From positions 1 to 14,002 of IMG/VR virus record IMGVR_UViG_2695420617_000005: 14,002 bases of DNA; one strand, written 5' to 3'. Source of the stretch: a virus (lineage: Duplodnaviria; Heunggongvirae; Uroviricota; Caudoviricetes). The position numbers and the translations under genes are program-made. Positions 1 through 14,002 of this stretch are shown piece by piece; position 1 is the first letter of the stretch; every line of letters begins with the position of its first letter. The notes under the pieces were generated by a model, which was not told the DNA's origin, did no database searches, and worked only from the letters and a program-made list of their open reading frames with translations.

Positions 1-102
1 TCTTTTCCTTTACTTTCTTTTTCTTTTTTGTGTGTTCTGCCCTTCCTTTTTTTCCTTTTTTTTTTCCGCTTTCGGCGCCCCCCGAGATCTACCCCTCTCT
101 TT
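1..102. other. Low-complexity T/C-rich non-biological sequence (read-end junk) preceding an adapter
   Basis: Homopolymer-like T and C runs with no coding or structural logic, immediately followed by a library adapter; the ORF-track translation here (FLFFLFFF...) is meaningless. Confidence 0.6.
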
Positions 103-135
103 TCGTCGTCAGCGTCAGATGTGTATAAGAGACAG
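103..135 (+). other. Nextera/Tn5 transposase adapter ending in the 19-bp mosaic end AGATGTGTATAAGAGACAG
   Basis: tcgtcgtcagcgtcAGATGTGTATAAGAGACAG matches the Nextera read-1 adapter plus Tn5 ME as recalled, with one mismatch in the overhang; ME at 117-135. Genuine sequence starts at 136. Confidence 0.85.
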
Positions 136-279
136 GTTTTCGACGTTACACGCATGATTTTGTCAGCGAAAGAAGAGTTGGCTAATGAAGCGCATCCGAT
201 TGATGGCCTGTCTGGTGAATATGCGGAGAAATCCCTTGAAGAATGGGCGGAACAGATTCGCAAAGGAAGCAGCCAGTGA
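136..279 (+). CDS. 3' fragment of a CDS truncated by the contig/adapter boundary; hypothetical protein (C-terminal 47 aa)
   Basis: Open frame continuing from the adapter junction to TGA at 277-279 (VFDVTRMILSAKEEL...KGSSQ); N-terminus missing. Confidence 0.45.
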   Translation, partial: VFDVTRMILSAKEELANEAHPIDGLSGEYAEKSLEEWAEQIRKGSSQ

Positions 280-566
280 ATATCGACACGACCGTAACGA
301 TCGATACGCTCCTAAATACCGGTCTGGCACTTCTCGGTTGGCTTTACATCATGTCCCGCACATGGCGATGGCTGGGTTCCATTTTCCTAAAACAGTGGAA
401 AAAACGGCGCAAACAGGAACTACGCCAGAAGGCATTAGAAGCGTTCTATGACGCATTTGAGCTTAGCCGCATTGAACCAGGTACAACAGCCAGGATAGCG
501 ACAAAAGGCGACCTGATGATAGTGATGTTCCGACAGGAGAGAGCAGAGAAAGGGGAATCAGCATGA
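276..566 (+). CDS. Hypothetical small membrane protein (96 aa from a GTG start), one predicted TM helix then a basic tail
   Basis: GTG at 276 overlaps the upstream stop (GTGA) and is preceded by AAGGAAG at 263-269. Hydrophobic segment TLLNTGLALLGWLYIM followed by KQWKKRRKQ. Start could instead be ATG 243. Confidence 0.45.
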   Translation: MNIDTTVTIDTLLNTGLALLGWLYIMSRTWRWLGSIFLKQWKKRRKQELRQKALEAFYDAFELSRIEPGTTARIATKGDLMIVMFRQERAEKGESA

Positions 567-1297
567 AATTTTCCAAATTTTCTGAGTTGGTGAATCGTAT
601 TTTGTCCAACAACCACAGCCATCGTCGCGATATGGATGTAACAATCGTTGTTCATTCGCCTGGCAGCATTGGTTCAACACCTTCAGTTGAGGTTCAGTCA
701 ATTCACGCTGGTTTTGATTGGGATTCCGGGAAAGTGCTTATTTTCCCATCACAGCCACTGACCACGCTAACACCAGAACAGATTACTGATATCACTGATA
801 GTGTGCGCAAAGGTCAGTCTTGGCACGCATATCAGGAATACAAGAAGCATCAAGAGCAGTTGGAAAAATTGTCGATTGAACTGGATGCCGCAAAACAGCG
901 CATTGCAGAGCTGGAGGGTAATCGCACGGCGCTGGCAGTGGAGAATGAGCTGGCTCGTAAGGCAGTTCAGGCATTCTGCGATGTTGTTGGCGACAACACC
1001 GAGGTTATCGCTGAGGTGGTTGGGCGAGATGGCGTTCTGGTTATTTTGGAGGCCATGAAGGCAACAGGAAATATGCCAGCCACCGATGCTTTCCTGGCTG
1101 AAGTACGGGCGCAGGGGGTAGAGATGTACGCAGATAACCTCGACAACGTAGCAGGAGACGCAGAACGAGGTGGTTTTGATTATGCCGTTAAGTTTCTACG
1201 CAGTGAAGCGTCTAGTGTACGTTTGTTCGCCGACCAGCTTCGCAAAGGAGGCGACCAGTGGGTAAATCAAAATGCCAGGTTTATGGCAACAAGATAG
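563..1297 (+). CDS. Hypothetical protein, 244 aa, with a central predicted coiled-coil
   Basis: ATG 563 overlaps the upstream stop (ATGA). Heptad-like region EQLEKLSIELDAAKQRIAELEGNRTALAVENELARKA. No motif I can assign. Confidence 0.6.
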   Translation: MKFSKFSELVNRILSNNHSHRRDMDVTIVVHSPGSIGSTPSVEVQSIHAGFDWDSGKVLIFPSQPLTTLTPEQITDITDSVRKGQSWHAYQEYKKHQEQLEKLSIELDAAKQRIAELEGNRTALAVENELARKAVQAFCDVVGDNTEVIAEVVGRDGVLVILEAMKATGNMPATDAFLAEVRAQGVEMYADNLDNVAGDAERGGFDYAVKFLRSEASSVRLFADQLRKGGDQWVNQNARFMATR

Positions 1298-1512
1298 AAC
1301 CGTGTACGACCCTGGCAAAATCCCTTGAGCATGATGCTGAATACACGATGCGAAAAGGTCTGCTGATATACAAAATCTGGAATGAGAGTTTAACTCGCGG
1401 TCCTGATTTTGTGATGTTGCGTTCCGGTGAATTTTCTAAATTACCAGTTCGGGTTTCATTTTGTCCGTTCTGTGGTGAAAGTCTGAAAACGTGGGAGAAC
1501 AGAAATGAATGA
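1258..1512 (+). CDS. Hypothetical small zinc-ribbon-like protein, 84 aa
   Basis: GTG start with AAGGAGG at 1243-1249. Four Cys arranged C6, C16 ... C69-P-F-C72. Overlaps the 3' end of the previous gene out of frame. Confidence 0.5.
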   Translation: MGKSKCQVYGNKIEPCTTLAKSLEHDAEYTMRKGLLIYKIWNESLTRGPDFVMLRSGEFSKLPVRVSFCPFCGESLKTWENRNE

Positions 1513-1816
1513 AATTAAAGAAATACCAGTAGTACGTGATGAATATGGCTACTGGACGCATCCTGAATATGAAAAATTCTGTGACGGTCGGGAATATATT
1601 TCAACGGAAGAGTTTAACGCCTGGATGGAGGAAAATAATCTTCAATACGTCCTCTGCTTCAGAGATGAAGGATGTGCTGACCTTGATGCGTGTGATGCTG
1701 ATATTTCTGCATGGGAACCGGAACGACCAGAGGGCAATGGATGGTTTATTGGTTCAATACATGACACCGAAGATGGCCCGGTTTGTGTATGGCTGAGAAA
1801 TAAGGCCGAAGCATAA
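1505..1816 (+). CDS. Hypothetical highly acidic small protein, 103 aa
   Basis: ATG 1505 in an ATGAATGA overlap with the upstream stop. About 25 Asp/Glu versus about 8 Lys/Arg (net about -17), with Cys/Asp-rich stretch CFRDEGCADLDACDAD. Confidence 0.55.
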   Translation: MNEIKEIPVVRDEYGYWTHPEYEKFCDGREYISTEEFNAWMEENNLQYVLCFRDEGCADLDACDADISAWEPERPEGNGWFIGSIHDTEDGPVCVWLRNKAEA

Positions 1817-1920
1817 AGGCTATAAACCGACTAACAACTAAATACTGAAGATTTAAATCAGAAACGATTTTTATTAAATCCTTAACCGGAGGGATTCCTG
1901 CACCCTCAGAACATCAGGAG

Positions 1921-1938
1921 GCCGCCCGAAAGGGCGGT
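1921..1938 (+). promoter_or_regulatory. GC-rich hairpin (6-bp stem ccgccc/gggcgg, GAAA loop) between an AGGAGG motif and the start codon of the next ORF
   Basis: AGGAGG at 1916-1921, hairpin 1921-1938, ATG at 1944. No U-tract follows, so it does not look like an intrinsic terminator. Confidence 0.4.
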
Positions 1939-1943
1939 AAGAA

Positions 1944-2162
1944 ATGACTACATTATTCAGAAAAGAATATCCGCAAAAAAGTAGGGCGACAGAATTTTTG
2001 TTTCTCATTCTGTTTATCGTATTGATGATACCGATATCCCCTCTAATTTTTGTCTGGGCAATCGGGAAAATAATTGAGCCAGTTACTGAATTGTATAACG
2101 ACGTGGTATGGGCGTCATTCAACACACTGCACAATAAAATTAATCCGTATAAGGAAAACTGA
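1944..2162 (+). CDS. Hypothetical small membrane protein, 72 aa, single TM segment
   Basis: Hydrophobic stretch FLFLILFIVLMIPISPLIFVWAIG. Linear SD spacing is too long (22 nt) unless the hairpin brings SD and ATG together. Confidence 0.4.
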   Translation: MTTLFRKEYPQKSRATEFLFLILFIVLMIPISPLIFVWAIGKIIEPVTELYNDVVWASFNTLHNKINPYKEN

Positions 2163-2163
2163 T

Positions 2164-2427
2164 ATGGCAACTTTGACAAAAAAAGAACGGGCATGGTTGA
2201 ACGAATTACAGGAAGTTCTTGATCGCTGTCCATCACCGAAAAAAATTGGCTTTTACACCATTGGCGATAAAAGCATTTACCTGTATGACCTGCGCCGCAT
2301 GGATGAAATCATGGAGGCTCTTGATAATCGTTCGTCAATGGATTGGTGTGTTGCTGTCCATGATATGAATGCAGGGTTTGATGAAAAGATTTTGTTCCCC
2401 TCATCAGTTGAAAGCACTGCGGGTTAA
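2164..2427 (+). CDS. Hypothetical protein, 87 aa
   Basis: ATG 2164 two nt after the upstream stop, AAGGAAAA 8 nt upstream. The longer ORF-track version from 2074 is probably not the real start. Confidence 0.5.
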   Translation: MATLTKKERAWLNELQEVLDRCPSPKKIGFYTIGDKSIYLYDLRRMDEIMEALDNRSSMDWCVAVHDMNAGFDEKILFPSSVESTAG

Positions 2428-2437
2428 GGAGTAACAC

Positions 2438-3436
2438 ATGACCACTATTACCAAAGAACGTATTGAATTGTTCATTAAAAATCCGCTTGAAAACGGGCTT
2501 ACCCGTGGTGAACAAATGGAACTGGCACGGATTGCACTGGCATCACTGGAAGCAGAGCCTGTTCTGTATCAGTCCTGCACTCGTCCCACCTGGAATAGCG
2601 GTGTTCCGTGGACGGAATGGAAAGAACGAAGTCGTGAGTGCTACGAAGACGATTTGCGCTTTACAGACACGCCTGACCATGCCGGTTGGATATACAAATG
2701 TCGAAAACTATATACCACTCCGCCAGCGCCGATAGCGTTAGAGGCCATTGAAAACGCAATTGAATACATCCGCAGTATCGCTTTTCACATCGATGAAGAC
2801 GATTACCACGGCAAACATATTGCGTATTTCATGCAACAAGCATTGGCCTGGCTGGAAGGGCATTCATGCAGCGACGACAGACTGGGTAAAGCCGAGAATC
2901 AACCAGTACGCGGCAACCAGGCTGCCGAATCCAATCGCAGTAATGAGTGGACTGGCAATCCTGATATTGATAACGCCATCATCATGCTCGACCGCATAGA
3001 TACGCTGGAAAGTTGCGATGATGACCGTATTGAGGCGGTTAAGGCTGTTTTGCGTAGACTGGCTGGCAACTATCCGGATATTCCGGATAGTTCGGTGCCA
3101 GCGCCAGGAAAGGGCGTCACCGGTGAACGTATCCGCATTAAGCCGCATGTTTATCGCGAACTGGTTAACCGTCTCCACGATACAGCGATCAAGTGTGCTG
3201 GCACCCAGCAATTACGAGAAAGAATTAGCCGTGTTTTGGGCGACGTTATTACACCAGATCATCATAAACAAGCCGAGAAAAGTGGCCTGGAAAGGTGTCA
3301 CCTTGAGACGGCATTAAACATTAAGCCGGGGCATACGCTTGGCATTATTGATGCACTATTGGTTCATAAGATGGCCAGGGCTTTATTGCCGCTGGTGGCT
3401 GAAAAGCATGAGGCGGACCATGCCAACGAAAGCTGA
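2438..3436 (+). CDS. Hypothetical protein, 332 aa, acidic, no recognisable motif
   Basis: Strong RBS TAAGGAG at 2424-2430 with 7-nt spacing to ATG. Longest ORF in the left block. Confidence 0.65.
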   Translation: MTTITKERIELFIKNPLENGLTRGEQMELARIALASLEAEPVLYQSCTRPTWNSGVPWTEWKERSRECYEDDLRFTDTPDHAGWIYKCRKLYTTPPAPIALEAIENAIEYIRSIAFHIDEDDYHGKHIAYFMQQALAWLEGHSCSDDRLGKAENQPVRGNQAAESNRSNEWTGNPDIDNAIIMLDRIDTLESCDDDRIEAVKAVLRRLAGNYPDIPDSSVPAPGKGVTGERIRIKPHVYRELVNRLHDTAIKCAGTQQLRERISRVLGDVITPDHHKQAEKSGLERCHLETALNIKPGHTLGIIDALLVHKMARALLPLVAEKHEADHANES

Positions 3437-3704
3437 GTTACAGGCGCGCATAGAGATTCTTGAAAAAGAGAATGCGAGTCTAAAAGGAATGCTGGCACGG
3501 GCGGAAAGGGAATTATCAGGTAAATTATTGCCAGAAGAACTGCCACCAGCAGATATACCAGATCGAGTGTCCCAGTGGATGAAGTCTTTTGGTTTACCGT
3601 GGGAGGCTTTTTGGTGCTACGAGCATCGCAGATGGTGTGATGAACTTGATAGCAGTTTTCCCTACTTTGCGGAAGGGAACACTTGCCCTGAGTGTAGGAG
3701 GTAG
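3420..3704 (+). CDS. Hypothetical protein, 94 aa: N-terminal coiled-coil plus C-terminal zinc-finger-like motif
   Basis: ATG 3420 with GAGG 6 nt upstream, overlapping the 3' end of the previous gene. C-terminal CYEHRRWC...CPEC (C-x6-C-x17-C-x2-C). Confidence 0.5.
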   Translation: MPTKAELQARIEILEKENASLKGMLARAERELSGKLLPEELPPADIPDRVSQWMKSFGLPWEAFWCYEHRRWCDELDSSFPYFAEGNTCPECRR

Positions 3705-3708
3705 CGCG

Positions 3709-3969
3709 ATGTTTCGTCCTCGTCCAATACCGCCGAAAATAACTAATGGCTATCAGCCGAATACTCCAGAAATACAAGGGAGCGAGGGGCTTAAACCACC
3801 ACCAGCACCACGTATTCCGCCTGTAGCAAGGAGCGTATCATTACGACGAGAGTTAATATTAGCCTTGTCGCCCGTTCTGGCTGCCCGCCAGGATTGGGTA
3901 AGTAATGATGACCTGGCAGAAAAAATCACATCGCTGGTGGATAAAATTCTGCATAAAGCTGATCTCTGA
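3709..3969 (+). CDS. Hypothetical proline-rich protein, 86 aa
   Basis: AGGAGG at 3695-3700, 8 nt from ATG 3709. Pro-rich N-terminal half (RPRPIPPK...KPPPAPRIPP). Confidence 0.4.
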   Translation: MFRPRPIPPKITNGYQPNTPEIQGSEGLKPPPAPRIPPVARSVSLRRELILALSPVLAARQDWVSNDDLAEKITSLVDKILHKADL

Positions 3970-3979
3970 TCACCATGCT

Positions 3980-4013
3980 AAAATCCCCTCAATTCACAGA
4001 GGGGATTTTTGTC
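3980..4013 (+). terminator. Rho-independent terminator (11-bp stem, 8-nt loop, U-tract)
   Basis: aaaatcccctc (3980-3990) pairs with gaggggatttt (3999-4009), followed by TTTTTGT. Closes the upstream plus-strand gene string. Confidence 0.6.
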
Positions 4014-4014
4014 T

Positions 4015-4281
4015 ATGTTGTATAGAGTTTTATGGAAAAGCGTTATTGTCGGCGCGATACTGGCTATATCTGGGTGTGCAATGGTGCAATACAACGACGG
4101 TGAAAAGGTAAGCATACAGTCAGATGGTTGGTATGGCCTGGATAGCCTGCAAAAAACCGCAGATAAAGCCTGTCAGCAATATGGGAAGTCTAAAGCTGTA
4201 TATCAGCATAGCGCGAACGCTAATCCCCATCTCGCTCCTGGGTCGGGTGTTCAGAATACCATCTGGAAATGTGAGCTTTAA
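4015..4281 (+). CDS. Putative lipoprotein, 88 aa (signal peptide with lipobox ISGC)
   Basis: N-terminus MLYRVLWKSVIVGAILAISGC fits a signal peptidase II lipobox. Starts 2 nt after the terminator U-tract, with SD-like GAGGGG inside the terminator stem. Confidence 0.6.
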   Translation: MLYRVLWKSVIVGAILAISGCAMVQYNDGEKVSIQSDGWYGLDSLQKTADKACQQYGKSKAVYQHSANANPHLAPGSGVQNTIWKCEL

Positions 4282-4291
4282 ACGTGAGCAA

Positions 4292-4305
4292 CTGCAATAT
4301 TGCAG
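4292..4305. promoter_or_regulatory. Perfect 14-bp palindrome CTGCAATATTGCAG in the gap before the Toprim-like gene; candidate operator
   Basis: Exact dyad symmetry in the 48-bp intergenic gap. Not followed by a U-tract, so more likely a protein-binding site than a terminator. Confidence 0.35.
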
Positions 4306-4329
4306 CTAAAAGCCAGGAAGAACGGAATT

Positions 4330-4854
4330 ATGACAAAATTTGGAAAGCTGGAAGCTCATTTGCTAACTCGTAACTACCGCCATGATATACACCCATATAG
4401 ACAGTGGATCGATGAAAGTGAAGGAGTAGTTACATTCCCTCTATACAGGTTTGATGGGATGTTGGCTGGGTATCAGACATATAGACCAGGTGCTCCTAAG
4501 CAGCATAGCAATCCGAAGATGGCCCGGTATTTCACGCGATCACATGGCAGACAGTTACTTTGGGGAACCTATCTTCCTTTAAAAGATGGCCCAATATGGA
4601 TCACTGAGTCTATTTTTAAGAGCGCAGCTGTACACAACGCGGGCGGCAATTCGTGGGCGCTGTTAGGTTCGACTTTCTCCGCAGGATTACGCCGTCAACT
4701 TGCGATGCTGCCGTATGACTTTCGTGTAATAGGTGACAATGATGCGGCTGGTGAATTACTTGTGAAGTCTTTCGGAAAAGGTTTTGTGGCCCCGGATCTT
4801 GACGAGCTACAACCACATGAAGTGTCTCATTTGATTTTTAGCCATAGCCAATAA
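4330..4854 (+). CDS. Hypothetical protein with a Toprim-like motif pair, 174 aa
   Basis: AGGAAG 9 nt before ATG 4330. Conserved-Glu context WITESIF followed about 50 aa later by VIGDNDAAGE, the E ... DxD arrangement of DnaG-type Toprim domains. Called by eye, not by HMM. Confidence 0.55.
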   Translation: MTKFGKLEAHLLTRNYRHDIHPYRQWIDESEGVVTFPLYRFDGMLAGYQTYRPGAPKQHSNPKMARYFTRSHGRQLLWGTYLPLKDGPIWITESIFKSAAVHNAGGNSWALLGSTFSAGLRRQLAMLPYDFRVIGDNDAAGELLVKSFGKGFVAPDLDELQPHEVSHLIFSHSQ

Positions 4855-4870
4855 GCCTCCCTCCTCCATC

Positions 4871-4917
4871 AAGGCCACAATTTGTGACCTTAAACAATTT
4901 GTTTTCTGCTTTTTCTT
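4871..4917 (+). terminator. Possible weak terminator: imperfect 21-bp palindrome plus T-rich tract
   Basis: AAGGcCACAAtTTGTGaCCTT (4871-4891) then tttgttttctgctttttctt. Sits in the convergent intergenic region; could alternatively be a protein-binding dyad. Confidence 0.3.
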
Positions 4918-4980
4918 ATTTGAGGAAATAACGTTGTTGACAGCTAATAGGCTCGTTGTTGTTATACATGCCTGTATAGA

Positions 4981-5337
4981 TTATGACCGTAAATTATTAG
5001 CGGATTTTAAGCCATATTCACCGTTGTAGAAATTACTCATGTTCCATTCATTAGGAAGTTCTTTTCTGTCCAATGTATAGTGGCGCACGATATAACGATC
5101 TTCATCTTCTTCGATGGACAGGCGGACATAGCCAATGTGAATCACCGATACGGGCGGTGTTCGTATTGCATAGATGTCGCGGAGATATACCGGCAGCTCG
5201 ACAAATGCATCAGGTGCATCTGTGATGCTCGTTTTTTCACAGTATTCATATAACGCATCGTTGATATCGTTAAGAGATTCATGATCGTATATTTCCAGGT
5301 AATTACCGCGATCGCGATGGTACTCGATTTTAGCCAT
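4981..5337 (-). CDS. Hypothetical protein, 118 aa; distal gene of a two-gene minus-strand operon
   Basis: ATG directly abuts the upstream gene stop (TGAATG on the minus strand), with AGGGGA as RBS. Visibly AT-richer than its neighbours, with an acidic patch SIEEDEDRY. Confidence 0.6.
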   Translation of the reverse strand: MAKIEYHRDRGNYLEIYDHESLNDINDALYEYCEKTSITDAPDAFVELPVYLRDIYAIRTPPVSVIHIGYVRLSIEEDEDRYIVRHYTLDRKELPNEWNMSNFYNGEYGLKSANNLRS

Positions 5338-5922
5338 TCAAAATCCCCTGTTATCGTTTTGCATTTCTCTAATCCGGTTCAGAACTACTTCGTGCTGGAC
5401 TTGGATAGCGGCTTTTTCGTTTTCAAGCCGGGCAATAGACATCTCTAATTCTTTGCTGTACCAGGCGAGCTGGGCCAGGTTCATCCGGTTGTGGTCGAGA
5501 GTTGGAGACACTTCGACGCGATCCCTTTCTTCCTGCTTTAATGAGAAGAGATTCATCTCATCCCTTGAGGAAAATTCAGCAACAATTTCTTGTTGATGAT
5601 CCGGTCGCTGCGGCATCCTCGCCAGTATAAATGGCGGTTCTTTTGAAAACATGAATGTCGGTTCAGACCGTGTTTTTACCCAGCTTGCCTGCTGTCTTTC
5701 GGCAAGTTCACAGGCTTCATCATAGTTATCTGCCAAACAAAGCACGGATGGACGGTCCCACGCCCCACCATTCAGACAATAAACTACAATTTTCCCGTCA
5801 GGTTGTGTAACCCCATATGGATGGTCCCACCAGGCGTCCAGCTGAGCTTTAGAGCGTTTCTCGTTAGGAGTGCAGTCAAAATTTTTGGGCAATACAGGAT
5901 CGAGAGGAATGCGATTAGGCAT
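5338..5922 (-). CDS. Hypothetical protein, 194 aa; Cys-containing N-terminal domain and C-terminal predicted coiled-coil
   Basis: AAGGA RBS upstream of the minus-strand ATG at 5922. C-terminal heptad-like region LAQLAWYSKELEMSIARLENEKAAIQVQHEVVLNRIREMQ. Divergent from humD. Confidence 0.65.
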   Translation of the reverse strand: MPNRIPLDPVLPKNFDCTPNEKRSKAQLDAWWDHPYGVTQPDGKIVVYCLNGGAWDRPSVLCLADNYDEACELAERQQASWVKTRSEPTFMFSKEPPFILARMPQRPDHQQEIVAEFSSRDEMNLFSLKQEERDRVEVSPTLDHNRMNLAQLAWYSKELEMSIARLENEKAAIQVQHEVVLNRIREMQNDNRGF

Positions 5923-6058
5923 AGCTAATTCCTTATTAACTGATTGGCAACGAGGTTACGCTGATCCCGCGGTGATGAATAGTAGCAAAGCGCACAAAAA
6001 TCATCAGCGGTGGTTGATGTACATAACGCGTTTGCACCAAAGGTGCTTCTTTAATGTA

Positions 6059-6078
6059 TACTGTACGGATAAACAGTA
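6059..6078. promoter_or_regulatory. LexA (SOS) box TACTGTACGGATAAACAGTA about 20 bp upstream of humD
   Basis: Fits the CTGT-N8-ACAG core with TA flanks. A possible -10 TATACT (6057-6062) overlaps it; -35 assignment is uncertain. Confidence 0.7.
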
Positions 6079-6096
6079 TTTTTGAGGTAAAACGCT

Positions 6097-6486
6097 ATGG
6101 GTTTCCCTTCTCCTGCGGCGGATTATGTTGAAAGCCGAATTTCTCTTGATCAGCAGATAATTAGACATCCATCAGCAACCTACTTCATGCGGGCAGCTGA
6201 TAGCCATCACCGTGAGGGAATATTGCAGGGTGCTTTGCTGGTGGTTGATTCTTCGCTTACTCCAGTTGATGGTTCGCTGCTTGTGTGCGCTATGGAGGGT
6301 GAATATCGCATAAAGAGATACAGGAAGTATCCGCGCCAGCACCTGGAGGATTTAAGCACCGGGAAGAAAGAGGCGTTACCAGTAGATGACGATGGTTACA
6401 CGGGTAGTAATGCTGTTTTTGGTGTGATCACTCATGTCATCAATGATGCCCGGAGTGGGGAGTTTGATGATTGTCCGGTCATTTAA
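6097..6486 (+). CDS. humD: HumD, UmuD'-like translesion-synthesis accessory protein (129 aa)
   Basis: Begins MGFPSPAADYVE, i.e. at the position equivalent to the UmuD'-generating cleavage site (UmuD ...C/GFPSPAADYVE...). HPSATYF and Ser/Lys contexts conserved. GAGG RBS. Confidence 0.9.
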   Translation: MGFPSPAADYVESRISLDQQIIRHPSATYFMRAADSHHREGILQGALLVVDSSLTPVDGSLLVCAMEGEYRIKRYRKYPRQHLEDLSTGKKEALPVDDDGYTGSNAVFGVITHVINDARSGEFDDCPVI

Positions 6487-6558
6487 GCTGCAAAGTGCTG
6501 GTGCTTTATGCCTGTGAAGTTTATAATTGTGTACACATAACGAGTACACGAGGTGTTT

Positions 6559-6780
6559 ATGCAATCCATTAACTTCCGTACCGCGCGCGGCAACCTTTCT
6601 GAAGTGCTCAACAATGTTGAAGCCGGGGAAGAGGTTGAAATCACCCGCAGAGGCCGTGAGCCAGCAGTAATTGTCAGCAAGGCTACTTTCGAAGCCTACA
6701 AAAAAGCGGCGCTGGATGCTGAATTTGCATCCCTGTTTGACACCCTGGACTCCACCAACAAGGAACTGGTTAACCGATAA
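6559..6780 (+). CDS. phd: Phd antitoxin (73 aa)
   Basis: [49 protein letters not shown]... matches P1 Phd as recalled. TAATG overlap with doc. Confidence 0.95.
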
Positions 6781-7160
6781 TGAGGCATATATCACCGGAA
6801 GAACTTATTGCGCTTCATGATGCGAATATAAGCCGCTACGGCGGCCTGCCGGGAATGTCTGATCCGGGTAGGGCAGAGGCCATTATCGGGAGAGTTCAGG
6901 CCAGAGTTGCCTACGAAGAGATCACCGACCTTTTCGAAGTCTCCGCCACCTACCTGGTAGCTACAGCGAGAGGGCATATATTCAATGATGCCAATAAGCG
7001 TACCGCGCTAAACAGTGCGCTGCTATTTCTACGCCGTAACGGGGTGCAGGTATTTGATTCACCTGAACTGGCAGACCTTACCGTAGGCGGTGCGACTGGC
7101 GAGATATCTGTATCTTCTGTCGCCGACACGTTACGTAGATTGTATGGTTCTGCGGAGTAG
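6780..7160 (+). CDS. doc: Doc toxin, Fic-fold kinase (126 aa)
   Basis: [25 protein letters not shown]... with the Fic-type motif HIFNDANKR; matches P1 Doc as recalled. Confidence 0.95.
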
Positions 7161-7164
7161 ATTA

Positions 7165-7344
7165 ATGGCACGTAAATACAACAAATTGTCCCGTGAAGCG
7201 TTAAAGATGCTTCTTGATGGTGTGAGCCGCAGCGAGGTAAAGCAATACCTGGTTGGTAAGCAAATTGGTGCCAGGACCGCTATTGCTGTGTTATGCCGTC
7301 AGGAAATGGTTGTGCTTAAACAGAGAATGCTGGGCAGCAGATAA
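7165..7344 (+). CDS. pdcA: Small protein downstream of doc (59 aa), corresponding by position to P1 pdcA
   Basis: ATG 4 nt after the doc stop. Name assigned from recalled P1 gene order (doc-pdcA-pdcB-lpa), not from sequence recognition. Confidence 0.55.
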   Translation: MARKYNKLSREALKMLLDGVSRSEVKQYLVGKQIGARTAIAVLCRQEMVVLKQRMLGSR

Positions 7345-7371
7345 AGCCCAATCAGTGATGAAAGGTGTGAT

Positions 7372-8415
7372 GTGAAAGCCGTAATTACTCCCTTTGTACA
7401 AAAAGAGCTTGGCGTCGCCACATTCAAAGTGGATCAGGAAGTCAGAAAGCTGGTGGAGGCTGGCCGTAAATTTATTATGGAGCCGGTGCCGCGTGAGTTA
7501 ATCGAGCACATGGACGACGGCCTCGTTGTTTCCGAGCAAACTATGGCAACAAATGAGGCGTTGCAGCCGTTTTTTAACAGCGATGAACTGTTTCGCCGTA
7601 TTGGTGGAATTGACGCGCTGGTGGCGTGGTTGCGCAGGAAAGAGGGGCAATGCCAGGCCGCAGATCGTAGCTGGTGTGACAACCATATTGTCCACGCAGA
7701 ACGAGACAATAGCGCGGTGTTGTTGTGCTGGCATCACGATAACCATTACCGGATGCGTGGTTTTAATGAGTTGAAAGAAACGCTGCATAATAATCGCGTT
7801 AACTGGATACTGGATGTCGCCCGTCAGGAAATGGGGCTTTCAGATGGCCATGATTTAAGTATTCAGGAACTGTGCTGGTGGGCTTTCATGCGCAACATGA
7901 TGCACCTGATGCCGGAAGAAGTTTGCCGTATATCAATAAATAAGATGAAAGCCGCAACGCAGGATAGCGGACCTCTGAAAGAGGCGGATATTCGCCCGTA
8001 TGACGATCGCGCTACAGCATATGTTCAGATGATGGAAGAACGCGCCGCGCCGATGCGTGCAAAAGTATGCCCTGTGGATGTTGACTCCGACCCAAGTATG
8101 GCGCATTTCAAGATACCAAAACTTCAATCGCTAAAATTGCCCGAGTACATGGACTTTGTGGCTTCCCGTCCATGCTGTGGCTGTGGAGCTGCGGGAGCTG
8201 GCGCTCACATTACGCCTTATATCGTTCGTCATAGTCGATTATGCGCGCATGACATTTATGCTATTCCTCTGTGCCAGTCATGCCAGCGTGATATTGAGCG
8301 TGACCGCGATAATTGGGAGAAGACGCACGGTAGGCTGGCGATGCATCAACGATTGTTCTTTGATTACGCGCTTGGAGTCGGCGCTATCACAAGTCATTCG
8401 TCGAGTGTTAGATAA
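7372..8415 (+). CDS. pdcB: pdcB-position protein, 347 aa, Cys/His-rich C-terminal region
   Basis: GTG start with AAAGGTG RBS (start uncertain). C-terminal cluster RPCCGCG...H...RH...LCAHD...PLCQSCQRD and upstream CWHHDNHY. Name from recalled gene order only. Confidence 0.65.
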
Positions 8416-8416
8416 A

Positions 8417-8433
8417 ATTGCTCTAATGTATTG
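8417..8433 (+). promoter_or_regulatory. C1 repressor operator (ATTGCTCTAATGTATTG) overlapping the lpa promoter -35
   Basis: 14/17 match to the recalled P1 C1 operator consensus ATTGCTCTAATAAATTT, with the first 11 positions exact. Confidence 0.6.
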
Positions 8434-8458
8434 CTATTTCTTTAATCGAGGGTATTAT
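8431..8458 (+). promoter_or_regulatory. Putative sigma70 promoter for lpa (-35 TTGCTA, 16-bp spacer, -10 TATTAT)
   Basis: TTGCTA at 8431-8436 and TATTAT at 8453-8458, about 45 bp upstream of the lpa start. Confidence 0.45.
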
Positions 8459-8503
8459 ATTCGACGTTGATTAGTTGACATGGGCTAATCAGTAGGTGAC
8501 AGG

Positions 8504-8956
8504 ATGTTACTTAACTGGCAGGGACGCCACTTCATGGAAATAAATCACTCACGAATAACATCGTACGAGATTGCGGATTACATGATCCGTACTAAATCTC
8601 TTCTATCAGCGAAAGAACTCGCAGCAATTCTTGAAAAGGAATACCCGCATCTGGATGTCGATAAGCGCGATGTTTATCTGCGCTTAAAGGCTATCGCTGT
8701 GTCTAAGTATTCGTCTGTTTTGATTGATGACAGTACACGCCCACGTAGATTTCAGATCCACTCTCTGAATCCTGAATTCTTTCGCCGCAGCCGCGCTCCG
8801 CGCCGGTTTGATGAAAAACTCCAGAACGAACTCTATATGACGCAGGACGAAAAGGAACGCCGGGAGCACCAGCCTTGGGTGATGGCGCGTCAACTTTTCA
8901 ATAAGGTGGTCCGTCAGCACCGTCATTACGGTAATGCCACATCCGCACGTATCTGA
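8504..8956 (+). CDS. lpa: Lpa, late promoter activator (150 aa)
   Basis: Position between pdcB and pacA with a C1-operator-controlled promoter, as expected for P1 lpa. Start could be ATG 8504 or the in-frame Met at 8534. Confidence 0.75.
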   Translation: MLLNWQGRHFMEINHSRITSYEIADYMIRTKSLLSAKELAAILEKEYPHLDVDKRDVYLRLKAIAVSKYSSVLIDDSTRPRRFQIHSLNPEFFRRSRAPRRFDEKLQNELYMTQDEKERREHQPWVMARQLFNKVVRQHRHYGNATSARI

Positions 8957-8966
8957 TTGATTGCTT

Positions 8967-8984
8967 GCCCGTTCCGGGCCTTTT
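8967..8984 (+). terminator. Possible short intrinsic terminator after lpa (GCCCG-ttc-CGGGC + CTTTT)
   Basis: 5-bp GC stem with 3-nt loop followed by a short T-run; weak by stem length. Confidence 0.35.
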
Positions 8985-9042
8985 GACATGTGACTTTCGT
9001 TACCCTCGCGTCAAAAAGAGTTTTATACGAAAGGAAGCATAA

Positions 9043-10236
9043 GTGACCTGGGACGATCACAAGAAGAATTTTGCTCGCCTGGCGCGAGATGGTGGTTACA
9101 CCATCGCACAATATGCCGCCGAGTTTAATCTCAACCCAAACACCGCACGTCGTTATCTCCGTGCATTCAAAGAAGACACCGGAACAGCGGACAGCCGTAA
9201 GCCAAATAAGCCTGTCAGAAAACCACTAAAAAGCATGATCATTGATCACGCTAATGATCAACGTGCAGGTGATCACGTTGTGGCTGAAATGGCTGAAAAA
9301 CAAAGAGTTAATGCTGTTGTCAGTGCCGCAGTCGAGAACGCGAAGCGCCAGAATAAGCGCATAAATGATCGTTCTGATGATCATGACGTGATCACCCGCG
9401 CCCACCGGACCTTACGTGATCGCCTGGAACGCGACACCCTGGATGATGATGGTGAACGCTTTGAATTCGAAGCTGGCGATTACCTGATAGATAACGTTGA
9501 AGCGCGGAAGGCCGCGCGCGCTATGTTGCGTCGGTCCGGGGCTGATGTTCTGGAAACCACTCTTCTGGAAAAGTCTCTCTCTCATCTCCTTATGCTGGAG
9601 AACGCCAGGGATACGTGTATTCGCCTGGTGCAGGAAATGCGCGATCAGCAAAAAGACGATGATGAAGGTACTCCGCCTGAATACCGTATCGCGAGCATGC
9701 TAAACAGCTGTTCCGCGCAGATAAGCAGCCTGATCAACACCATTTACAGCATCCGGAATAACTATCGAAAAGAAAGCCGGGAGGCGGAAAAGCACGCTTT
9801 GTCTATGGGGCAAGCTGGCATTGTTAAGCTGGCATACGAACGAAAGCGTGAAAATAACTGGTCAGTGCTGGAAGCAGCTGAATTCATCGAGGCGCATGGC
9901 GGGAAAGTGCCGCCCCTGATGCTGGAGCAAATCAAAGCCGATCTGCGTGCTCCTAAGACCAATACCGATGATGAGGAAAGGCAAACAGCCGTCGGTGGCC
10001 CTTCTCTTGAAGATCTGGACAAAGTTGCGCGAGAACGGGCCGCCAACCGCCGCGCGGATGCCGCATTGTGGATTGAGCAGCGTAGGGAAGAAATCGCCGA
10101 TATCGTTGATACAGGCGGTTATGGAGATGTTGATACTGAAGGTGTATCAAACGACCCATGGCTGGAACAAGACCTGGACGAAGACGAGGAGGAAGACGAA
10201 GAAGTTACCCGCAAGCTATACGGGGATGATGATTAA
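9043..10236 (+). CDS. pacA: PacA, terminase/pacase subunit (397 aa); contains the pac site
   Basis: GTG start with AAAGGAAG RBS. Begins [28 protein letters not shown]..., length 397 aa, acidic C-tail; pac hexamer array lies inside the gene. Confidence 0.9.
9236..9394. other. P1 pac packaging site: 4 + 3 TGATC(A/G) hexamers, each with a Dam GATC
   Basis: TGATCA at 9236, 9243, 9255, 9270; TGATCG at 9366; TGATCA at 9378, 9389. Matches the known pac architecture; cleavage region is the roughly 90-bp spacer between the clusters. Confidence 0.85.
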
Positions 10237-11720
10237 TGGCCAGAAGTTGCGTAACGGATCCACGTTGGCGCGAGCTGGTGGCGCTATATCGTTATGACTG
10301 GATTGCGGCCGCTGATGTTTTGTTCGGCAAAACACCTACCTGGCAGCAGGATCTGATTATTGAGTCTGTGCAGGAACAGGGTAGCAAGACATCTGTTTCG
10401 TCTGGTCACGGTACCGGGAAATCAGACATGACTTCTATCATGATCATGTTGTTCATAATCATGTATCCCGGTGCCCGCGCTATTATCGTTGCGAACAAAA
10501 TTCAGCAGGTAATGACCGGTATATTCAAGTACATCAAGATAAACTGGGCTACTGCCACCAGCCGTTTCCCATGGCTTGCTGATTATTTTGTTCTGACAGA
10601 AACCGCTTTCTATGAGGTTACTGGTAAAGGTGTATGGACTGTAGTACCGAAGGGCTTTCGTCTGGGAAGTGAAGAAGCTCTCGCCGGTGAACACGCAGAT
10701 CATCTTCTGTATATTATCGATGAAGCCTCCGGTGTCAGTGATAGAGCTTTCGGTATCATCACCGGTGCTCTTACCGGACAGGATAACCGCATCTTATTAC
10801 TGTCACAGCCTACACGCCCAAGCGGCTATTTCTACGATACACACCATAAACTGGCCAAGCGTCCTGGTAACCCTGATGGCGTTTATACGGCGATCACGCT
10901 TAACAGTGAGGAATCACCGCTGGTAACGCCAGCATTTATCAAAATGAAGCTGGCGGAGTACGGCGGGCGTGATAACCCTATGTACATGATTAAGGTACGC
11001 GGCCTATTCCCTAAATCACAGGATGGCTTCCTTCTTGGACGTGATGAGGTTGAACGTGCAACGCGGCGGAAAGTCAAGATTGCAAAAGGATGGGGCTGGC
11101 TTGCATGTGTGGACGTTGCTGGTGGTACGGGACGGGATAAGTCCGTTATCAATATCATGATGGTGTCCGGCCAGCGAAATAAACGCCGTGTAATCAACTA
11201 TCGAATGCTGGAATACACAGACGTTACAGAAACGCAGCTTGCCGCCAAAATTTTCGCAGAATGTAATCCTGAGCGATTCCCAAATATCACCATAGCGATA
11301 GACGGCGATGGCCTGGGTAAAGCAACGGCGGATCTGATGTACGAGTATTATGGTATTACCGTACAGCGTATACGCTGGGGTAAAAAGATGCATAGCCGTG
11401 AAGATAAGAGCCTGTACTTTGATAAACGTGCTTATGCCAACGTTCAAGCCGCAGAGGCCGTAAAATCTGGTCGTATGAGACTGGATAAGGGTAATGAAAC
11501 TATTGAGGAAGCGTCGAAAATCCCTGTAGGGATTAACTCCGCAGGTCAATGGAAGGTGATGAGTAAGGAGGATATGAAGAAAAAACTCAACCTGCACTCA
11601 CCAGACCATTGGGATACATATTGTTTCGCTATGCTGGCGGATTATGTTCCCCAGGATGAAGTGCTTAGCGTCGAAGACGAAGCGCAGGTTGATGAAGCTC
11701 TGGCATGGCTTAATGAATAA
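10236..11720 (+). CDS. pacB: PacB, terminase large/ATPase subunit (494 aa)
   Basis: TAATG overlap with pacA. Walker A-like P-loop [10 protein letters not shown] near the N-terminus; length 494 aa. Confidence 0.9.
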
Positions 11721-11744
11721 CTCATTGACCATGCCGGATAGAAA

Positions 11745-12596
11745 CTATTGCGCGCTTTCGGGGTTGTCGTTTACCGGCTGCCCCTTCTTAGTTTTACGGC
11801 TGCGCGTAACTGATGCGGCTGATTTGACCTTTTTCTCTTCGCGAGTGATGGCAATTTGTTTTTTTACATTTTCAATATCTGCCAGGCGATATATTTTTGC
11901 CTGCGGCCAGCGGTCGCAGATGATCGGTTCTATGGAGTCATAAAGGCTAAATTTTGCTTTCTCGAATTCACCGTTGATGATGATTCCATCACGGAGAGTT
12001 TCATCGCAGATAAACACACCACACAGCGGCACATGGTAACTAACTGATTTACCATCATTGTAGTTAGGGCTACTGGAAATGTAATGGACGCGTAGCATTG
12101 TTTCGCTAAAGCCGTGTACACGCATACGGAATTTTTCATCCTCCGGGTACTGCTTCATTAGCTCTTTTGTTGCTTCCAGGTTCTCTATGTATTTCGCACT
12201 GTGCTCATTGATCCCCGCGCTTTTCTGGATGCGAATGTCCTTATCAATCAGATGAATAATGCGGCCAGCGGTCATGTTGACGCTGTTCACAGCTTCTGTC
12301 TGATAAGTCGTAACCTTACGCACACCGCGAAGGATGTTAGGCACTGGATATAAAATAGTCTTTGGGATATTGAGGTCTGGGTACTGTTCCAGTTCCCGCG
12401 CCATTAAAGTCCATTTATCAATTTCAGCCTGAATGCTGTCCGTTTCTTTGAACGGCAGAACGACAACCGGGCGAACAGGACGACCGTCGCTGGCGGCATC
12501 AACGTGTTGGGCGCGTGCAACAGCTTTTTTTAGAAAGAGATCCCTGAAGCTGACGAACTCCTGGTACAGTTGTTCGCCGTAGACATAATTTATCAT
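11745..12596 (-). CDS. c1: C1 master repressor of lysogeny (283 aa)
   Basis: MINYVYGEQLYQEFVSFRDLFLKK..., 283 aa, GGAGGAGG RBS. Convergent with pacB, adjacent to coi and the operator cluster. Confidence 0.9.
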   Translation of the reverse strand: MINYVYGEQLYQEFVSFRDLFLKKAVARAQHVDAASDGRPVRPVVVLPFKETDSIQAEIDKWTLMARELEQYPDLNIPKTILYPVPNILRGVRKVTTYQTEAVNSVNMTAGRIIHLIDKDIRIQKSAGINEHSAKYIENLEATKELMKQYPEDEKFRMRVHGFSETMLRVHYISSSPNYNDGKSVSYHVPLCGVFICDETLRDGIIINGEFEKAKFSLYDSIEPIICDRWPQAKIYRLADIENVKKQIAITREEKKVKSAASVTRSRKTKKGQPVNDNPESAQ

Positions 12597-12619
12597 TGAT
12601 CCTCCTCCAGAATTGACAT

Positions 12620-12660
12620 GGCCAACAACTCACAGCGGATTACACTGGGAGTTGTTGGCC
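12620..12660. repeat. 12-bp perfect inverted repeat (GGCCAACAACTC ... GAGTTGTTGGCC, 17-nt loop) in the coi-c1 intergenic region
   Basis: Arms at 12620-12631 and 12649-12660, about 24 nt upstream of the c1 start codon on the transcribed strand; no U-tract on either strand. Confidence 0.5.
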
Positions 12661-12690
12661 ACCATTATAGAAGGATCCAACGAAAATAAT

Positions 12691-12707
12691 AGATTTATTA
12701 GTGCATT
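12691..12707 (-). promoter_or_regulatory. C1 operator-like site abutting the coi stop codon (candidate c1 autoregulatory operator)
   Basis: Minus-strand reading AATGCACTAATAAATCT, 14/17 to the recalled consensus. Confidence 0.45.
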
Positions 12708-12916
12708 TATTGTGAGTCTGGCTGGTTAGTGGCCATGAGATATTCGATTGTGTCAGTGAGATCATCCAGGTCGTCTTGGGTGATGCGGTACTCCTGATTG
12801 GATATCTTTGAGTAGTGTTCAGCAATGGCGCGGGCAGCGTCGGTTTCGGCGGGGTCTACAGATAAAGCGTTAGAGCAATGTCTAACGTCGTCGATGGTTG
12901 GTGGAATGAAAGCCAT
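12707..12916 (-). CDS. coi: Coi, C1 inactivator (69 aa)
   Basis: 69-aa ORF immediately upstream of c1 on the same strand, GAGG RBS; matches the P1 immC arrangement. Confidence 0.85.
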   Translation of the reverse strand: MAFIPPTIDDVRHCSNALSVDPAETDAARAIAEHYSKISNQEYRITQDDLDDLTDTIEYLMATNQPDSQ

Positions 12917-13154
12917 AATTATGCCTCACTGTATTGACAACACAGAGCCTGAAGCTCTGACCTACTGTTTCACCCATGATCCATGCTGGGGTAATCTAAC
13001 AACATTGCGCTGTGTGTAAGATGAGCAATGCATAGCTGTAATGCCGTTGTATAAGGTTTCCCTGTTTGCTCATTTCCTTCTGAGCCGCTCTACAACGCTG
13101 AAGACACATTAAATAGTGAATCCAAAGTCGTATTACGAAACGGCGGCAAAACTA

Positions 13155-13171
13155 TAATTTATTAGAGCAAT
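13155..13171 (-). promoter_or_regulatory. C1 operator (immC Op99-type), minus-strand ATTGCTCTAATAAATTA
   Basis: 16/17 match to the recalled consensus, upstream of the imcB/imcA-coi-c1 transcription unit. Confidence 0.65.
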
Positions 13172-13237
13172 TGTCAGACAACTATGAAAAACAATCCAGT
13201 TTTTGGCTGGTGGAGTGGGATTTTTCTCTCAAAATTT

Positions 13238-13254
13238 ATTGCTCTAATAATTCT
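13238..13254 (+). promoter_or_regulatory. C1 operator (immC Op99-type), plus-strand ATTGCTCTAATAATTCT
   Basis: 13 consecutive consensus positions; opposite orientation to the 13155 operator, about 67 bp away. Confidence 0.55.
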
Positions 13255-13297
13255 TGATTTTTATGCGCAGCTGGACGTAAACTCCTCTTCGGACCTA

Positions 13298-13331
13298 ATA
13301 ACTTCGTATAGCATACATTATACGAAGTAAA
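13298..13331. other. loxP site for Cre: 13-bp arm, 8-bp spacer GCATACAT, second arm with two outer-position differences
   Basis: ATAACTTCGTATA-GCATACAT-TATACGAAGTaAa versus canonical ...TATACGAAGTTAT. Spacer centre lies exactly 436 bp upstream of the cre ATG. Confidence 0.85.
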
Positions 13332-13402
13332 CTTAAGGGTTATTGAACATGATCAATTTACCTGTAAATCCATACAGTTCAATACCTTATCAGGTCAAAT
13401 AG

Positions 13403-13424
13403 TGATCACTTGATCATTTGATCA
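13403..13424. promoter_or_regulatory. Three TGATCA (Dam GATC) hexamers at 8-bp phasing in the cre upstream region
   Basis: TGATCA at 13403, 13411, 13419; the same hexamer as in pac. Dam-sensitive control of cre promoters is described for P1. Confidence 0.5.
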
Positions 13425-13429
13425 AGGTT

Positions 13430-13488
13430 GCGCTACGTAAAATCTGCGAAATGTTGGCAGTGTTAGTGCTCCAGATTTCGCGTAGCGC
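13430..13488. repeat. Imperfect 17-bp inverted repeat (15/17) with about 25-bp spacer upstream of the small ORF and cre
   Basis: GCGCTACGTAAAATCTG (13430-13446) and CAGATTTCGCGTAGCGC (13472-13488). Confidence 0.4.
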
Positions 13489-13520
13489 ACTTAGCACCAC
13501 CAATCAATCAGAGGTGAAAA

Positions 13521-13742
13521 ATGGGATATTCAGCTGCTAAAGTGTCCACTCATCTTGAGCTTGAGAAAAACCGTGGTTACTGGCGGGCAAAAGGGTTTGA
13601 GCGTGATAGTTACCAACTGTCATTATCTCGCGGTGAAGAAAAAATAGAACGCACGCGCGGTCGCTGGCGTTTCTATGACGAGAACCATAAACAGGTAAAG
13701 GCAGAGCCGATCCTGTACACTTTACTTAAAACCATTATCTGA
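13521..13742 (+). CDS. Small basic ORF (73 aa) between loxP and cre
   Basis: Strong SD AGAGGTGA about 5 nt before ATG 13521; stop TGA 13740-13742 is 7 nt before the cre ATG. Lys/Arg-rich, Trp/Tyr-containing. I do not recall whether an annotated P1 gene sits here. Confidence 0.5.
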   Translation: MGYSAAKVSTHLELEKNRGYWRAKGFERDSYQLSLSRGEEKIERTRGRWRFYDENHKQVKAEPILYTLLKTII

Positions 13743-13749
13743 GTGTTAA

Positions 13750-14002
13750 ATGTCCAATTTACTGACCGTACACCAAAATTTACCTGCATTACCGGTCGAT
13801 GCAACGAGTGATGAGGTTCGCAAGAACCTGATGGACATGTTCAGGGATCGCCAGGCGTTTTCTGAGCATACCTGGAAAATGCTTCTGTCCGTTTGCCGGT
13901 CGTGGGCGGCATGGTGCAAGTTGAATAACCGGAAATGGTTTCCCGCAGAAACTGAAGATGTTCGCGATTATCTTCTATATCTTCAGGCGCGCGGTCTGTT
14001 TG
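13750..14002 (+). CDS. cre: Cre tyrosine recombinase, N-terminal 84 codons (truncated by the window end)
   Basis: MSNLLTVHQNLPALPVDATSDEVRKNLMDMFRDRQAFSEHTWKMLLSVCRSWAAWCKLNNRKWFPAE... matches Cre as recalled; 436 bp from the loxP centre. Confidence 0.9.
   Translation, partial: MSNLLTVHQNLPALPVDATSDEVRKNLMDMFRDRQAFSEHTWKMLLSVCRSWAAWCKLNNRKWFPAETEDVRDYLLYLQARGLF

Follow-up and report, generated by a model that had tools for sequence, protein, structure and literature searches.

The stretch of DNA analysed here (the window: 14,002 nucleotides (nt), positions 1 to 14,002 of IMG/VR virus record IMGVR_UViG_2695420617_000005) carries a small lipoprotein gene preceded by a strong hairpin. The 5′ arm of this hairpin contains a putative −10 element, and its 3′ arm contains the Shine-Dalgarno-like sequence of the gene. 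We propose that hairpin and gene form a cassette, a mobile accessory 'moron' carried by a P1-like plasmid prophage in its variable region; that the hairpin is a dual-purpose insulator, which would stop transcription arriving from upstream and lock up the ribosome-binding site of any RNA that escapes; and that the product is a lipoprotein of the outer membrane that acts on the cell envelope. This is the best explanation that we have, and we put its probability, taken as a whole, at roughly 0.6.

A terminator-like hairpin with a putative −10 and a Shine-Dalgarno-like sequence

Directly upstream of the gene lies an inverted repeat with two arms of 11 nt each (3980–3990 and 3999–4009), which are 100% complementary and enclose an 8-nt loop. 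The elements of this region, all on the + strand, are the following.

3976–3984, + strand: putative extended −10, TGcTAAAAT (TGCTAAAAT), with the hexamer TAAAAT (3979–3984) within the 5′ arm
3980–4009, + strand: hairpin AAAATCCCCTC / loop AATTCACA / GAGGGGATTTT, terminator-like, with the Shine-Dalgarno sequence sequestered
3991, + strand: predicted transcription start, an A, 7 nt after the −10
3999–4004, + strand: Shine-Dalgarno-like GAGGGG in the 3′ arm, 10 nt before the ATG at 4015 and 4 nt before a TTG at 4009
4006–4014, + strand: T-tract TTTTTGTCT, the final part of the terminator, with the first four T's paired to A's of the −10
4015–4281, + strand: lipoprotein gene, 88 amino acids (aa), ATG to TAA; predicted signal peptide 1–20 and lipid-bearing Cys21 (4075–4077); alternative start TTG at 4009

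The hairpin is the top-ranked terminator-like site of the 14-kb window. Its minimum free energy is −17.5 kcal/mol (z = −5.7), and none of 200 shuffled sequences folded equally well. It has the features expected of an intrinsic terminator, with a UCCCCUC/GAGGGGA core in an 11 base pair (bp) stem, UUUUUGUCU directly after it, and a position 10 nt past the stop codon of the array of genes upstream. The hairpin that a preliminary description of this DNA had reported as a strong terminator is thus confirmed, and the GAGGGG noted there within the stem lies in the 3′ arm. That description had also placed the open reading frame (ORF) 2 nt after the terminator; the spacing is indeed close, although the ATG lies 5 nt past the stem, or 1 nt past position 4013.

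The predicted start at 3991 has the usual spacing from a −10, and the A is kept in the lambdoid relatives described below. A transcript that began there would have a 24-nt leader without the 5′ arm, for which no significant structure is predicted (z = −0.35). A scan of the hairpin region against Rfam matched no family. A reading of the hairpin as an RNA thermometer was rejected, as the stem is far too stable. Searching viral contigs for the pattern AATCCCCTC-N(3-12)-GAGGGGATT yielded more than 120 unrelated loci; the pattern is that of a generic, self-complementary terminator stem and is uninformative on the cassette.

Promoter-like elements and hairpin pairing among relatives

The regulatory comparison covered the 130 nt upstream of the gene, extracted from 91 loci. 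Twelve distinct lambdoid lineages share one layout, namely gTCGAAA, a 17-nt spacer, an invariant TATAAT, CC(C)... and an A 7 nt past the hexamer, and their two hexamers are conserved while the intervening spacer varies. The Klebsiella copy scored 10/12 in a promoter scan. The TAAAAT of the window is homologous in position to the invariant TATAAT. P1-type copies, such as that of the window, diverge from the lambdoid ones directly upstream of the −10, at a recombination joint, and are without the −35. Every P1-type variant keeps TGn together with the hexamer (TGt in L036), and an extended −10 (TGn) would compensate for the missing −35. The case for a functional −10 in the window is entirely one of comparison with these relatives.

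The hairpin is intact in all 11 P1-type upstream variants, one of them with a G–U pair, and relatives carry GAGAGGG, GGGGG or GGAG at the Shine-Dalgarno position. In the lambdoid copies a C/T-rich run directly after the −10 pairs with the G-rich Shine-Dalgarno sequence, and hairpins with z ≤ −2.2 were found in nine of the 12 lineages. Citrobacter-type loci (L077, L084, L086 and L093) have stems of 13–15 bp; the 15-bp stem of the L077 type (caTATAATccctctc / gagagggattatATG) reaches −22.9 kcal/mol (z = −8.1). One strand of these stems takes in the complete −10 and the other the Shine-Dalgarno sequence and AUG, both of the latter being covered in the L077, L084 and L086 types. They have no U-tract and so are not terminators, and for this reason the Citrobacter-type hairpin would have to act on translation.

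Changes in one arm are matched by changes in the other. A compensatory change separates the window (TAAAAT/ATTTT) from the Citrobacter type (TATAAT/ATTATA), and further matched changes are seen among CCCCTC/GAGGGG, CCCTCTC/GAGAGGG and CCCCCTC/GAGGGGG. A MAFFT alignment of the leaders put the arms out of register, and column-based pair counting was replaced by an arm-swap duplex-energy test. Cognate arm pairs proved more stable than swapped pairs (permutation p = 0.00055, a value that overstates independence because the lineages are related). The preliminary description had suggested an independently expressed, insulated gene. This suggestion gains comparative support from the −10 and −35 of the 12 lambdoid lineages and from the covariation of the arms; it loses the palindrome that had been taken as its boundary, discussed below, and no terminator follows the gene.

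Another type of upstream region, unrelated to the first, was seen in L010, L021, L057, L083 and others at a distance of about 50 nt from the gene. There a −10-like CATAAAAT or CATAATCT runs straight into a hairpin, ACCCTTGTACA...TGTACGGGT (z = −2.5 to −3.3), after which come AUUUAGGAAA and the ATG. This type may be an independent case of a hairpin that abuts a promoter.

A lipoprotein family with a near-invariant mature part

The encoded protein begins with a signal sequence that has R4 and K8, the hydrophobic core VIVGAILAISG-C21 and the lipobox A-I-S-G-C. Under a PROSITE-type lipoprotein rule (positive n-region, hydrophobic h-region, [LVI][ASTVI][GAS]-C, and the Cys at residues 15–35), the window protein qualifies as a lipoprotein, as do 123 of 135 distinct proteins of the family. 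Together with the conservation of the family, this indicates that the lipobox-bearing ORF pointed out earlier is a genuine lipoprotein gene. The predicted mature protein has 68 aa and a mass of 7.4 kDa, and contains the conserved residues Cys53 and Cys86. Lipoproteins of E. coli without Asp at position +2 are sorted to the outer membrane. Residue +2 is Ala here and A, T, S, V, G, N, H or E across the family; as it is never Asp, an outer-membrane location is predicted.

The protein matches phrog_7757 of PHROGs (E = 4e-52), a family of unknown function, and scans against Pfam, NCBIfam and PADLOC assigned it to no family. There are 65 close homologues, all from Enterobacterales, all of 80–90 aa and all labelled hypothetical, and a profile search added 51 more distant clusters, formed at 50% identity, whose members agree with them in size and pattern. 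The signal peptide is variable and the mature part near-invariant (VQYNDGxxVSIQSDGWYGLDSLQKTAxxACQQYGKSKAxYxHSANxNPxLPxGSGVQNTIWKCE). Between the window and L033, both P1-type copies, the non-synonymous rate (dN) is 0 and the synonymous rate (dS) 0.42. The median dN/dS of the computable pairs is 0.05, and between genera dN is only 0.11–0.17 with dS saturated. These rates indicate that the gene is under strong purifying selection. Even so, it is unannotated in its own RefSeq record (NZ_CP038506.1, 10201–10467), where the locus tag RS26500 is skipped; sister plasmids annotate it as a hypothetical protein, WP_023356287.1. Four proteins of 456–1197 aa (P0070, P0078, P0086 and P0106) have 4–14 repeated matches to parts of the lipoprotein profile, and the domain, or a piece of it, may exist also as a tandem repeat.

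An AlphaFold2 model (predicted local distance difference test score, pLDDT, 86.5) shows a signal helix followed by beta-beta-alpha-beta-beta. The modelled fold resembles that of the lipoprotein YecR, which was the best structural match, and would be a disulfide-braced domain distantly related to it. Profile comparison agreed. Using hhalign, the broad family matched the single E. coli YecR sequence with a probability of 84.5% (E = 7e-6) and a YecR alignment with 90.5% (E = 1.3e-6); this alignment was shallow, as the search for YecR homologues gave just close Escherichia sequences. The ACQQxG helix is aligned in both comparisons, and a shared C-terminal aromatic-x-Cys lies outside the aligned stretch. 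Only one of 39 broad-family members matched the YecR family of Pfam (E = 0.0039), for which E. coli YecR itself scores 104.9 bits. YecR (PF13992, PDB 7bgl) also differs in having about 90 mature residues and four extra cysteines, compared with 68 and two in the window protein, which is without the YecR insert. We conclude that the window lipoprotein is probably a distant relative of YecR and not a member of its family. The best viral match found by Foldseek was an unnamed 'Lipoprotein' (1.4e-3), and nothing above noise came from searching PDB sequences with the profile of the family. Sub-threshold matches to Pfam DUF4189 (best E = 0.0027) were seen for six of the 39 distant members and hint at a wider superfamily linking the lipoprotein family, YecR and DUF4189. 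An assignment as an o-spanin (Rz1-like) was rejected, since the neighbours are accessory genes plus a toprim gene or hot and the model is a confidently folded alpha/beta domain.

Proposed mechanism

In the proposed mechanism the 5′ arm carries the cassette's own −10 and discriminator (TGcTAAAAT-CCCCTC), and the 3′ arm carries GAGGGG and runs into the U-tract. Because the 5′ arm includes the −10, it would be present only in RNA from an upstream promoter, for which the gene array upstream is the likely source. Such read-through RNA would have both arms, fold and, in the P1 type, be terminated at the U-tract, and the ribosome-binding site of any RNA escaping termination would be locked in the stem. 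In the Citrobacter type, read-through RNA would have both Shine-Dalgarno sequence and AUG buried. RNA from the cassette's own promoter would start at about 3991, in the loop, and without the 5′ arm there would be no hairpin, no termination and a free ribosome-binding site. It is then probably only the cassette's own transcript that is translated. After export, the product would receive its lipid at Cys21 and be sorted to the outer membrane, where it would bind a conserved envelope component to the benefit of the lysogen, by phage exclusion or envelope modification.

The closest parallels to this arrangement are in insertion sequences (IS). IS10 and IS50 are reportedly subject to a fold-back mechanism, described by Davis, Simons and Kleckner in 1985 and by Krebs and Reznikoff in 1986. 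As in these elements, the inverted repeat would straddle the start of the element's own transcript so that only read-through RNA hides the ribosome-binding site. In the window the 3′ arm lies over that site, and among the lineages pairing is kept by compensatory change. In IS200, a left-end terminator guards against impinging transcription and the transposase transcript starts just after it, at about nt 40 (PMC4513863). The window differs from all three in that one hairpin would combine terminator, −10 and anti-Shine-Dalgarno, and in that a phage cargo gene, not a transposase, would be protected.

The moron concept is that of independently transcribed cargo, and the lambda gene bor, for example, encodes an outer-membrane lipoprotein (PMC3594210). 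With the phage morons (HK97 gene 15, lambda bor, lom) the cassette would share its patchy occurrence among related phages, its accessory nature and its independent transcription. Canonical morons have a promoter upstream and a terminator downstream, whereas here the terminator lies upstream and overlaps the putative promoter, and none comes after the gene. The cassette also ancestrally includes a second gene, hot, and its lipoprotein has no sequence relation to lambda Bor. It would therefore combine two known kinds, the phage moron and IS-style protection from outside transcription. A bolder version of the proposal is that the single stem-loop (−10, terminator and anti-Shine-Dalgarno in one) is a portable cargo insulator, so that transcripts from the cargo's own promoter, made for instance in the lysogen, are translated and those of lytic read-through never are, and that this cargo founds a widespread YecR-related family of phage lipoproteins docking on a conserved outer-membrane machine. 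In that full form the idea is speculative, and we would not expect it to hold.

Alternative explanations

The hairpin could instead be a plain terminator of the upstream accessory operon, with an incidental −10 and with weak expression of the gene by read-through or from a distant promoter. The rank of the hairpin in the window and its place just past the last gene of a long co-directional array would suit such a role. So would the sequence of the −10: TGNTAWAAT occurs once in the window and is expected 1.23 times, so the extended −10 of the preliminary description, although present, is by itself no better than chance, and no recognisable −35 was seen for it. A plain terminator would, on the other hand, leave read-through RNA with its Shine-Dalgarno sequence buried in an 11-bp stem, and the gene must be expressed, because it is under strong purifying selection. 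Nor would it account for relatives in which the two functions come apart, as the L077 type keeps the hairpin without a U-tract and hairpin-less relatives keep TCGAAA-17-TATAAT. We regard the plain terminator as unlikely and prefer the insulated cassette. Besides the chance-level −10, the missing −35 and the relatedness of the lineages in the arm-swap test, several other results count against the cassette proposal. No significant hairpin was seen in three lambdoid lineages (L005, L014 and L064), and occlusion is therefore not general. The −10 may owe part of its conservation to its place in a hairpin arm. The Shine-Dalgarno sequence lies 10 nt from the ATG, and the TTG at 4009 is an alternative start. 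No terminator-like site was found between 4281 and 4330, so that the cassette lacks the terminator of its own that a moron should have, and its guanine plus cytosine (GC) content (0.42–0.46, compared with 0.47–0.53 upstream) is just slightly below that of the flanks, which leaves the classical moron signature incomplete. On the side of the protein, the window sequence had no match to the YecR family of Pfam at its gathering threshold of 27 bits, and a Foldseek search of the PDB and BFVD gave nothing at E ≤ 0.001 and missed YecR.

As to function, our best guess is an envelope-acting role in lysogenic conversion or broad exclusion. Nearly the same mature protein occurs in phages with unrelated tails, which points to a conserved envelope target and not to the receptor of the carrier phage itself. 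A more specific possibility is receptor-masking superinfection exclusion of the kind known for Llp (T5), Cor (T1, phi80, HK022 and N15) and Rtp45 (Rtp), in which the lipoprotein would attach to an outer-membrane protein from the periplasmic side and block adsorption allosterically. Those proteins are phage lipoproteins of about 6–7 kDa that are anchored in the outer membrane and face the periplasm, and Llp and Cor have an intramolecular disulfide (PMC9586334, PMC12685063). The window lipoprotein falls in the same size class, is predicted to be anchored in the same membrane and has a conserved Cys pair that probably forms a disulfide. It would also be an independent unit on temperate phages, and one class of loci has its gene at the prophage end, close to those for lysozyme and the tail tip. 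It is not, however, linked to a particular receptor-binding protein, and no similarity to the Llp, Cor, Rtp45 or Bor families was found by sequence or fold, so we hold receptor masking to be a tentative possibility, somewhat doubtful in this exact form. Much less probable is that the protein is a functional analogue of YecR on the flagellar L ring, with effects on motility, on the assembly of flagella or on sensitivity to flagellotropic phages. The structural match and the profile comparison support distant homology, the title of PDB entry 7bgl and PMC11756786 place YecR on the outside of the Salmonella L ring, and PMC12330518 describes temperate phages remodelling the flagella of lysogens. 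In the same account of YecR (PMC11756786) no defect in L-ring formation is reported for a yecR mutant, and the window protein has two of the four non-lipid cysteines of YecR and no YecR insert. The two also differ in setting, YecR being chromosomal and part of the flagellar regulon and the window lipoprotein being phage-borne. Klebsiella and Raoultella are classically non-flagellate, and because the gene is common in prophages of Klebsiella pneumoniae and Raoultella, a general flagellar role is unlikely.

The downstream palindrome and the relic of hot

Three features follow the lipoprotein gene.

4284–4328, + strand: relic of the first 15 codons of hot (a homologue of DNA polymerase III theta), recognised by aligning the window with the intact hot genes of pF1273-3, P1 and a Citrobacter prophage
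4292–4305: 14-bp perfect palindrome CTGCAATATTGCAG, corresponding to hot codons 3–8
4330–4854, + strand: toprim-domain (primase-like) gene, 174 aa, matching phrog_849 (DNA primase), which replaces the rest of hot

The palindrome is present and perfect at the place given by the preliminary description, but as a downstream boundary of the gene it fails: it is part of a truncated hot whose 5′ end has mutated, and most relatives do not have it. The arrangement in most of the related plasmids is the TAA of the lipoprotein gene, 2 nt and then the ATG of intact hot. The relic has changed from ATG to GTG, from Asp to Asn and from Trp to Cys, and its homology to hot ends near 4328, where the plasmid matches also break. 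Intact hot reads CTGGAATATTGCAG (pF1273-3, one mismatch) or TTGGAATATTGCAG (P1), and it is the single G-to-C change behind the Trp to Cys replacement that makes the palindrome perfect. A perfect repeat between the lipoprotein gene and the next gene might suggest a functional site, either for binding a protein or for terminating transcription at the end of the cassette. Against this, two perfect 14-bp palindromes in the window are not beyond chance (0.94 expected), and the palindrome is imperfect in about 200 plasmids with intact hot and imperfect or absent in lambdoid loci. It is followed by no T-run and cannot form a useful RNA hairpin. A LexA box was rejected, since such boxes are spaced CTG-N10-CAG and the palindrome reads CTG-N8-CAG, and so was a P1 C1 operator, as the palindrome is not among the four sites of the window within three mismatches of that consensus. 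A functional role is thus scarcely credible, and the alignment indicates that the palindrome is a coding relic of the neighbouring gene and not an insulator or boundary. The analysis thereby removes it as a false lead. The second perfect 14-bp palindrome (CAGCGTATACGCTG, 11364–11377) lies inside the pacB region.

Because no terminator follows the lipoprotein gene, transcription of the cassette probably reads on, here into the toprim gene and in relatives into hot. The toprim protein matches only the middle of primase profiles (positions 145–333 of 435 in phrog_849), and in this respect resembles a primase fragment standing on its own. In phage PhiR41_1 the toprim gene comes after an EaA gene.

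Distribution, mobility and decay

No copy of the lipoprotein gene was found in P1 or in any of the 50,697 phage records of INPHARED by tblastn and distant blastn. It is present in 240 plasmids of PLSDB and in 182 of 5,426 complete E. coli genomes, where 183 of its 185 places are on plasmids. Many prophages of Klebsiella, Citrobacter, Raoultella, Enterobacter and Serratia also carry it, those in Klebsiella, Citrobacter, Raoultella and others being lambdoid. The gene is thus found, with the presence and absence expected of a moron, in three different prophage backbones. In the lambdoid loci it is followed by hot and preceded by a gene with a conserved 3′ end; translated, this end gives a C-terminus that we take to resemble that of a cytosine methyltransferase. 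In the third setting, that of the Phytobacter-type loci, no other prophage gene separates it from the genes of the chromosome, and lysozyme, holin-like and tail-tip genes are found a few kb further into the prophage. Of the proviruses predicted in IMG/VR, many have the ATG of the gene as their exact starting point. The loci of this provirus-start or outermost setting are as follows.

L063, L065–L067, L085, L089, L091, L092, L098, L101–L103 and L110–L112: lipoprotein gene at the provirus start or outermost in the prophage

Copies truncated at the 5′ end occur in 62 E. coli records, with 80–90% identity; those listed, together with L049–L054 and L060, start at window position 4023. They are without promoter, hairpin and start codon and abut a divergent gene. 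In some plasmid copies among them the lipobox Cys is replaced by Phe or Gly. To judge from these features the truncated copies are probably pseudogenes, a pattern that fits decay after silencing.

Genomic setting

The window is 100% identical to plasmid p28Eco12 of E. coli 28Eco12 (NZ_CP038506.1, 92 kb, IncY, non-mobilizable). Past the cassette the gene order is lxr-like, humD, phd, doc, pdcA, pdcB, lpa and pacA, which matches that of phage P1; because of this order we identify the element, from its genes, as a P1-like plasmid prophage (phage-plasmid) of E. coli. Both findings support the reading of the element as a P1-like prophage. The cassette sits in a mosaic accessory stretch, which in P1 holds upfM, upfN, upfO and hot. 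Upstream of it runs an array of accessory ORFs of lambdoid type (Ead/Ea22-like, DUF4752, DUF4014 and others), co-directional and at least 3.7 kb long, which ends with the following gene.

3709–3969, + strand: last gene of the array, 86 aa, hypothetical (WP_131728164.1), with its stop codon 10 nt before the hairpin

The four matches to the P1 C1 operator consensus in the window, with 1–3 mismatches, compare with 0.07 expected.

8417–8433, 12691–12707, 13155–13171 and 13238–13254: C1-operator-like sites, from the consensus scan

One of them is directly upstream of lpa, as in P1, and none is near the lipoprotein cassette.

Significance

About 3% of completely sequenced E. coli genomes carry this gene, on P1-like plasmid prophages that also spread resistance genes. 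Its product has an almost frozen mature sequence and yet neither a name nor a Pfam family. A cargo so conserved is probably useful to the lysogen, which makes the protein a good candidate for a new exclusion or envelope-modifying factor. If the proposed mechanism is true, phage morons would use a trick of insertion sequences to ignore transcription from outside, and the hairpin would be a very small natural insulator part.

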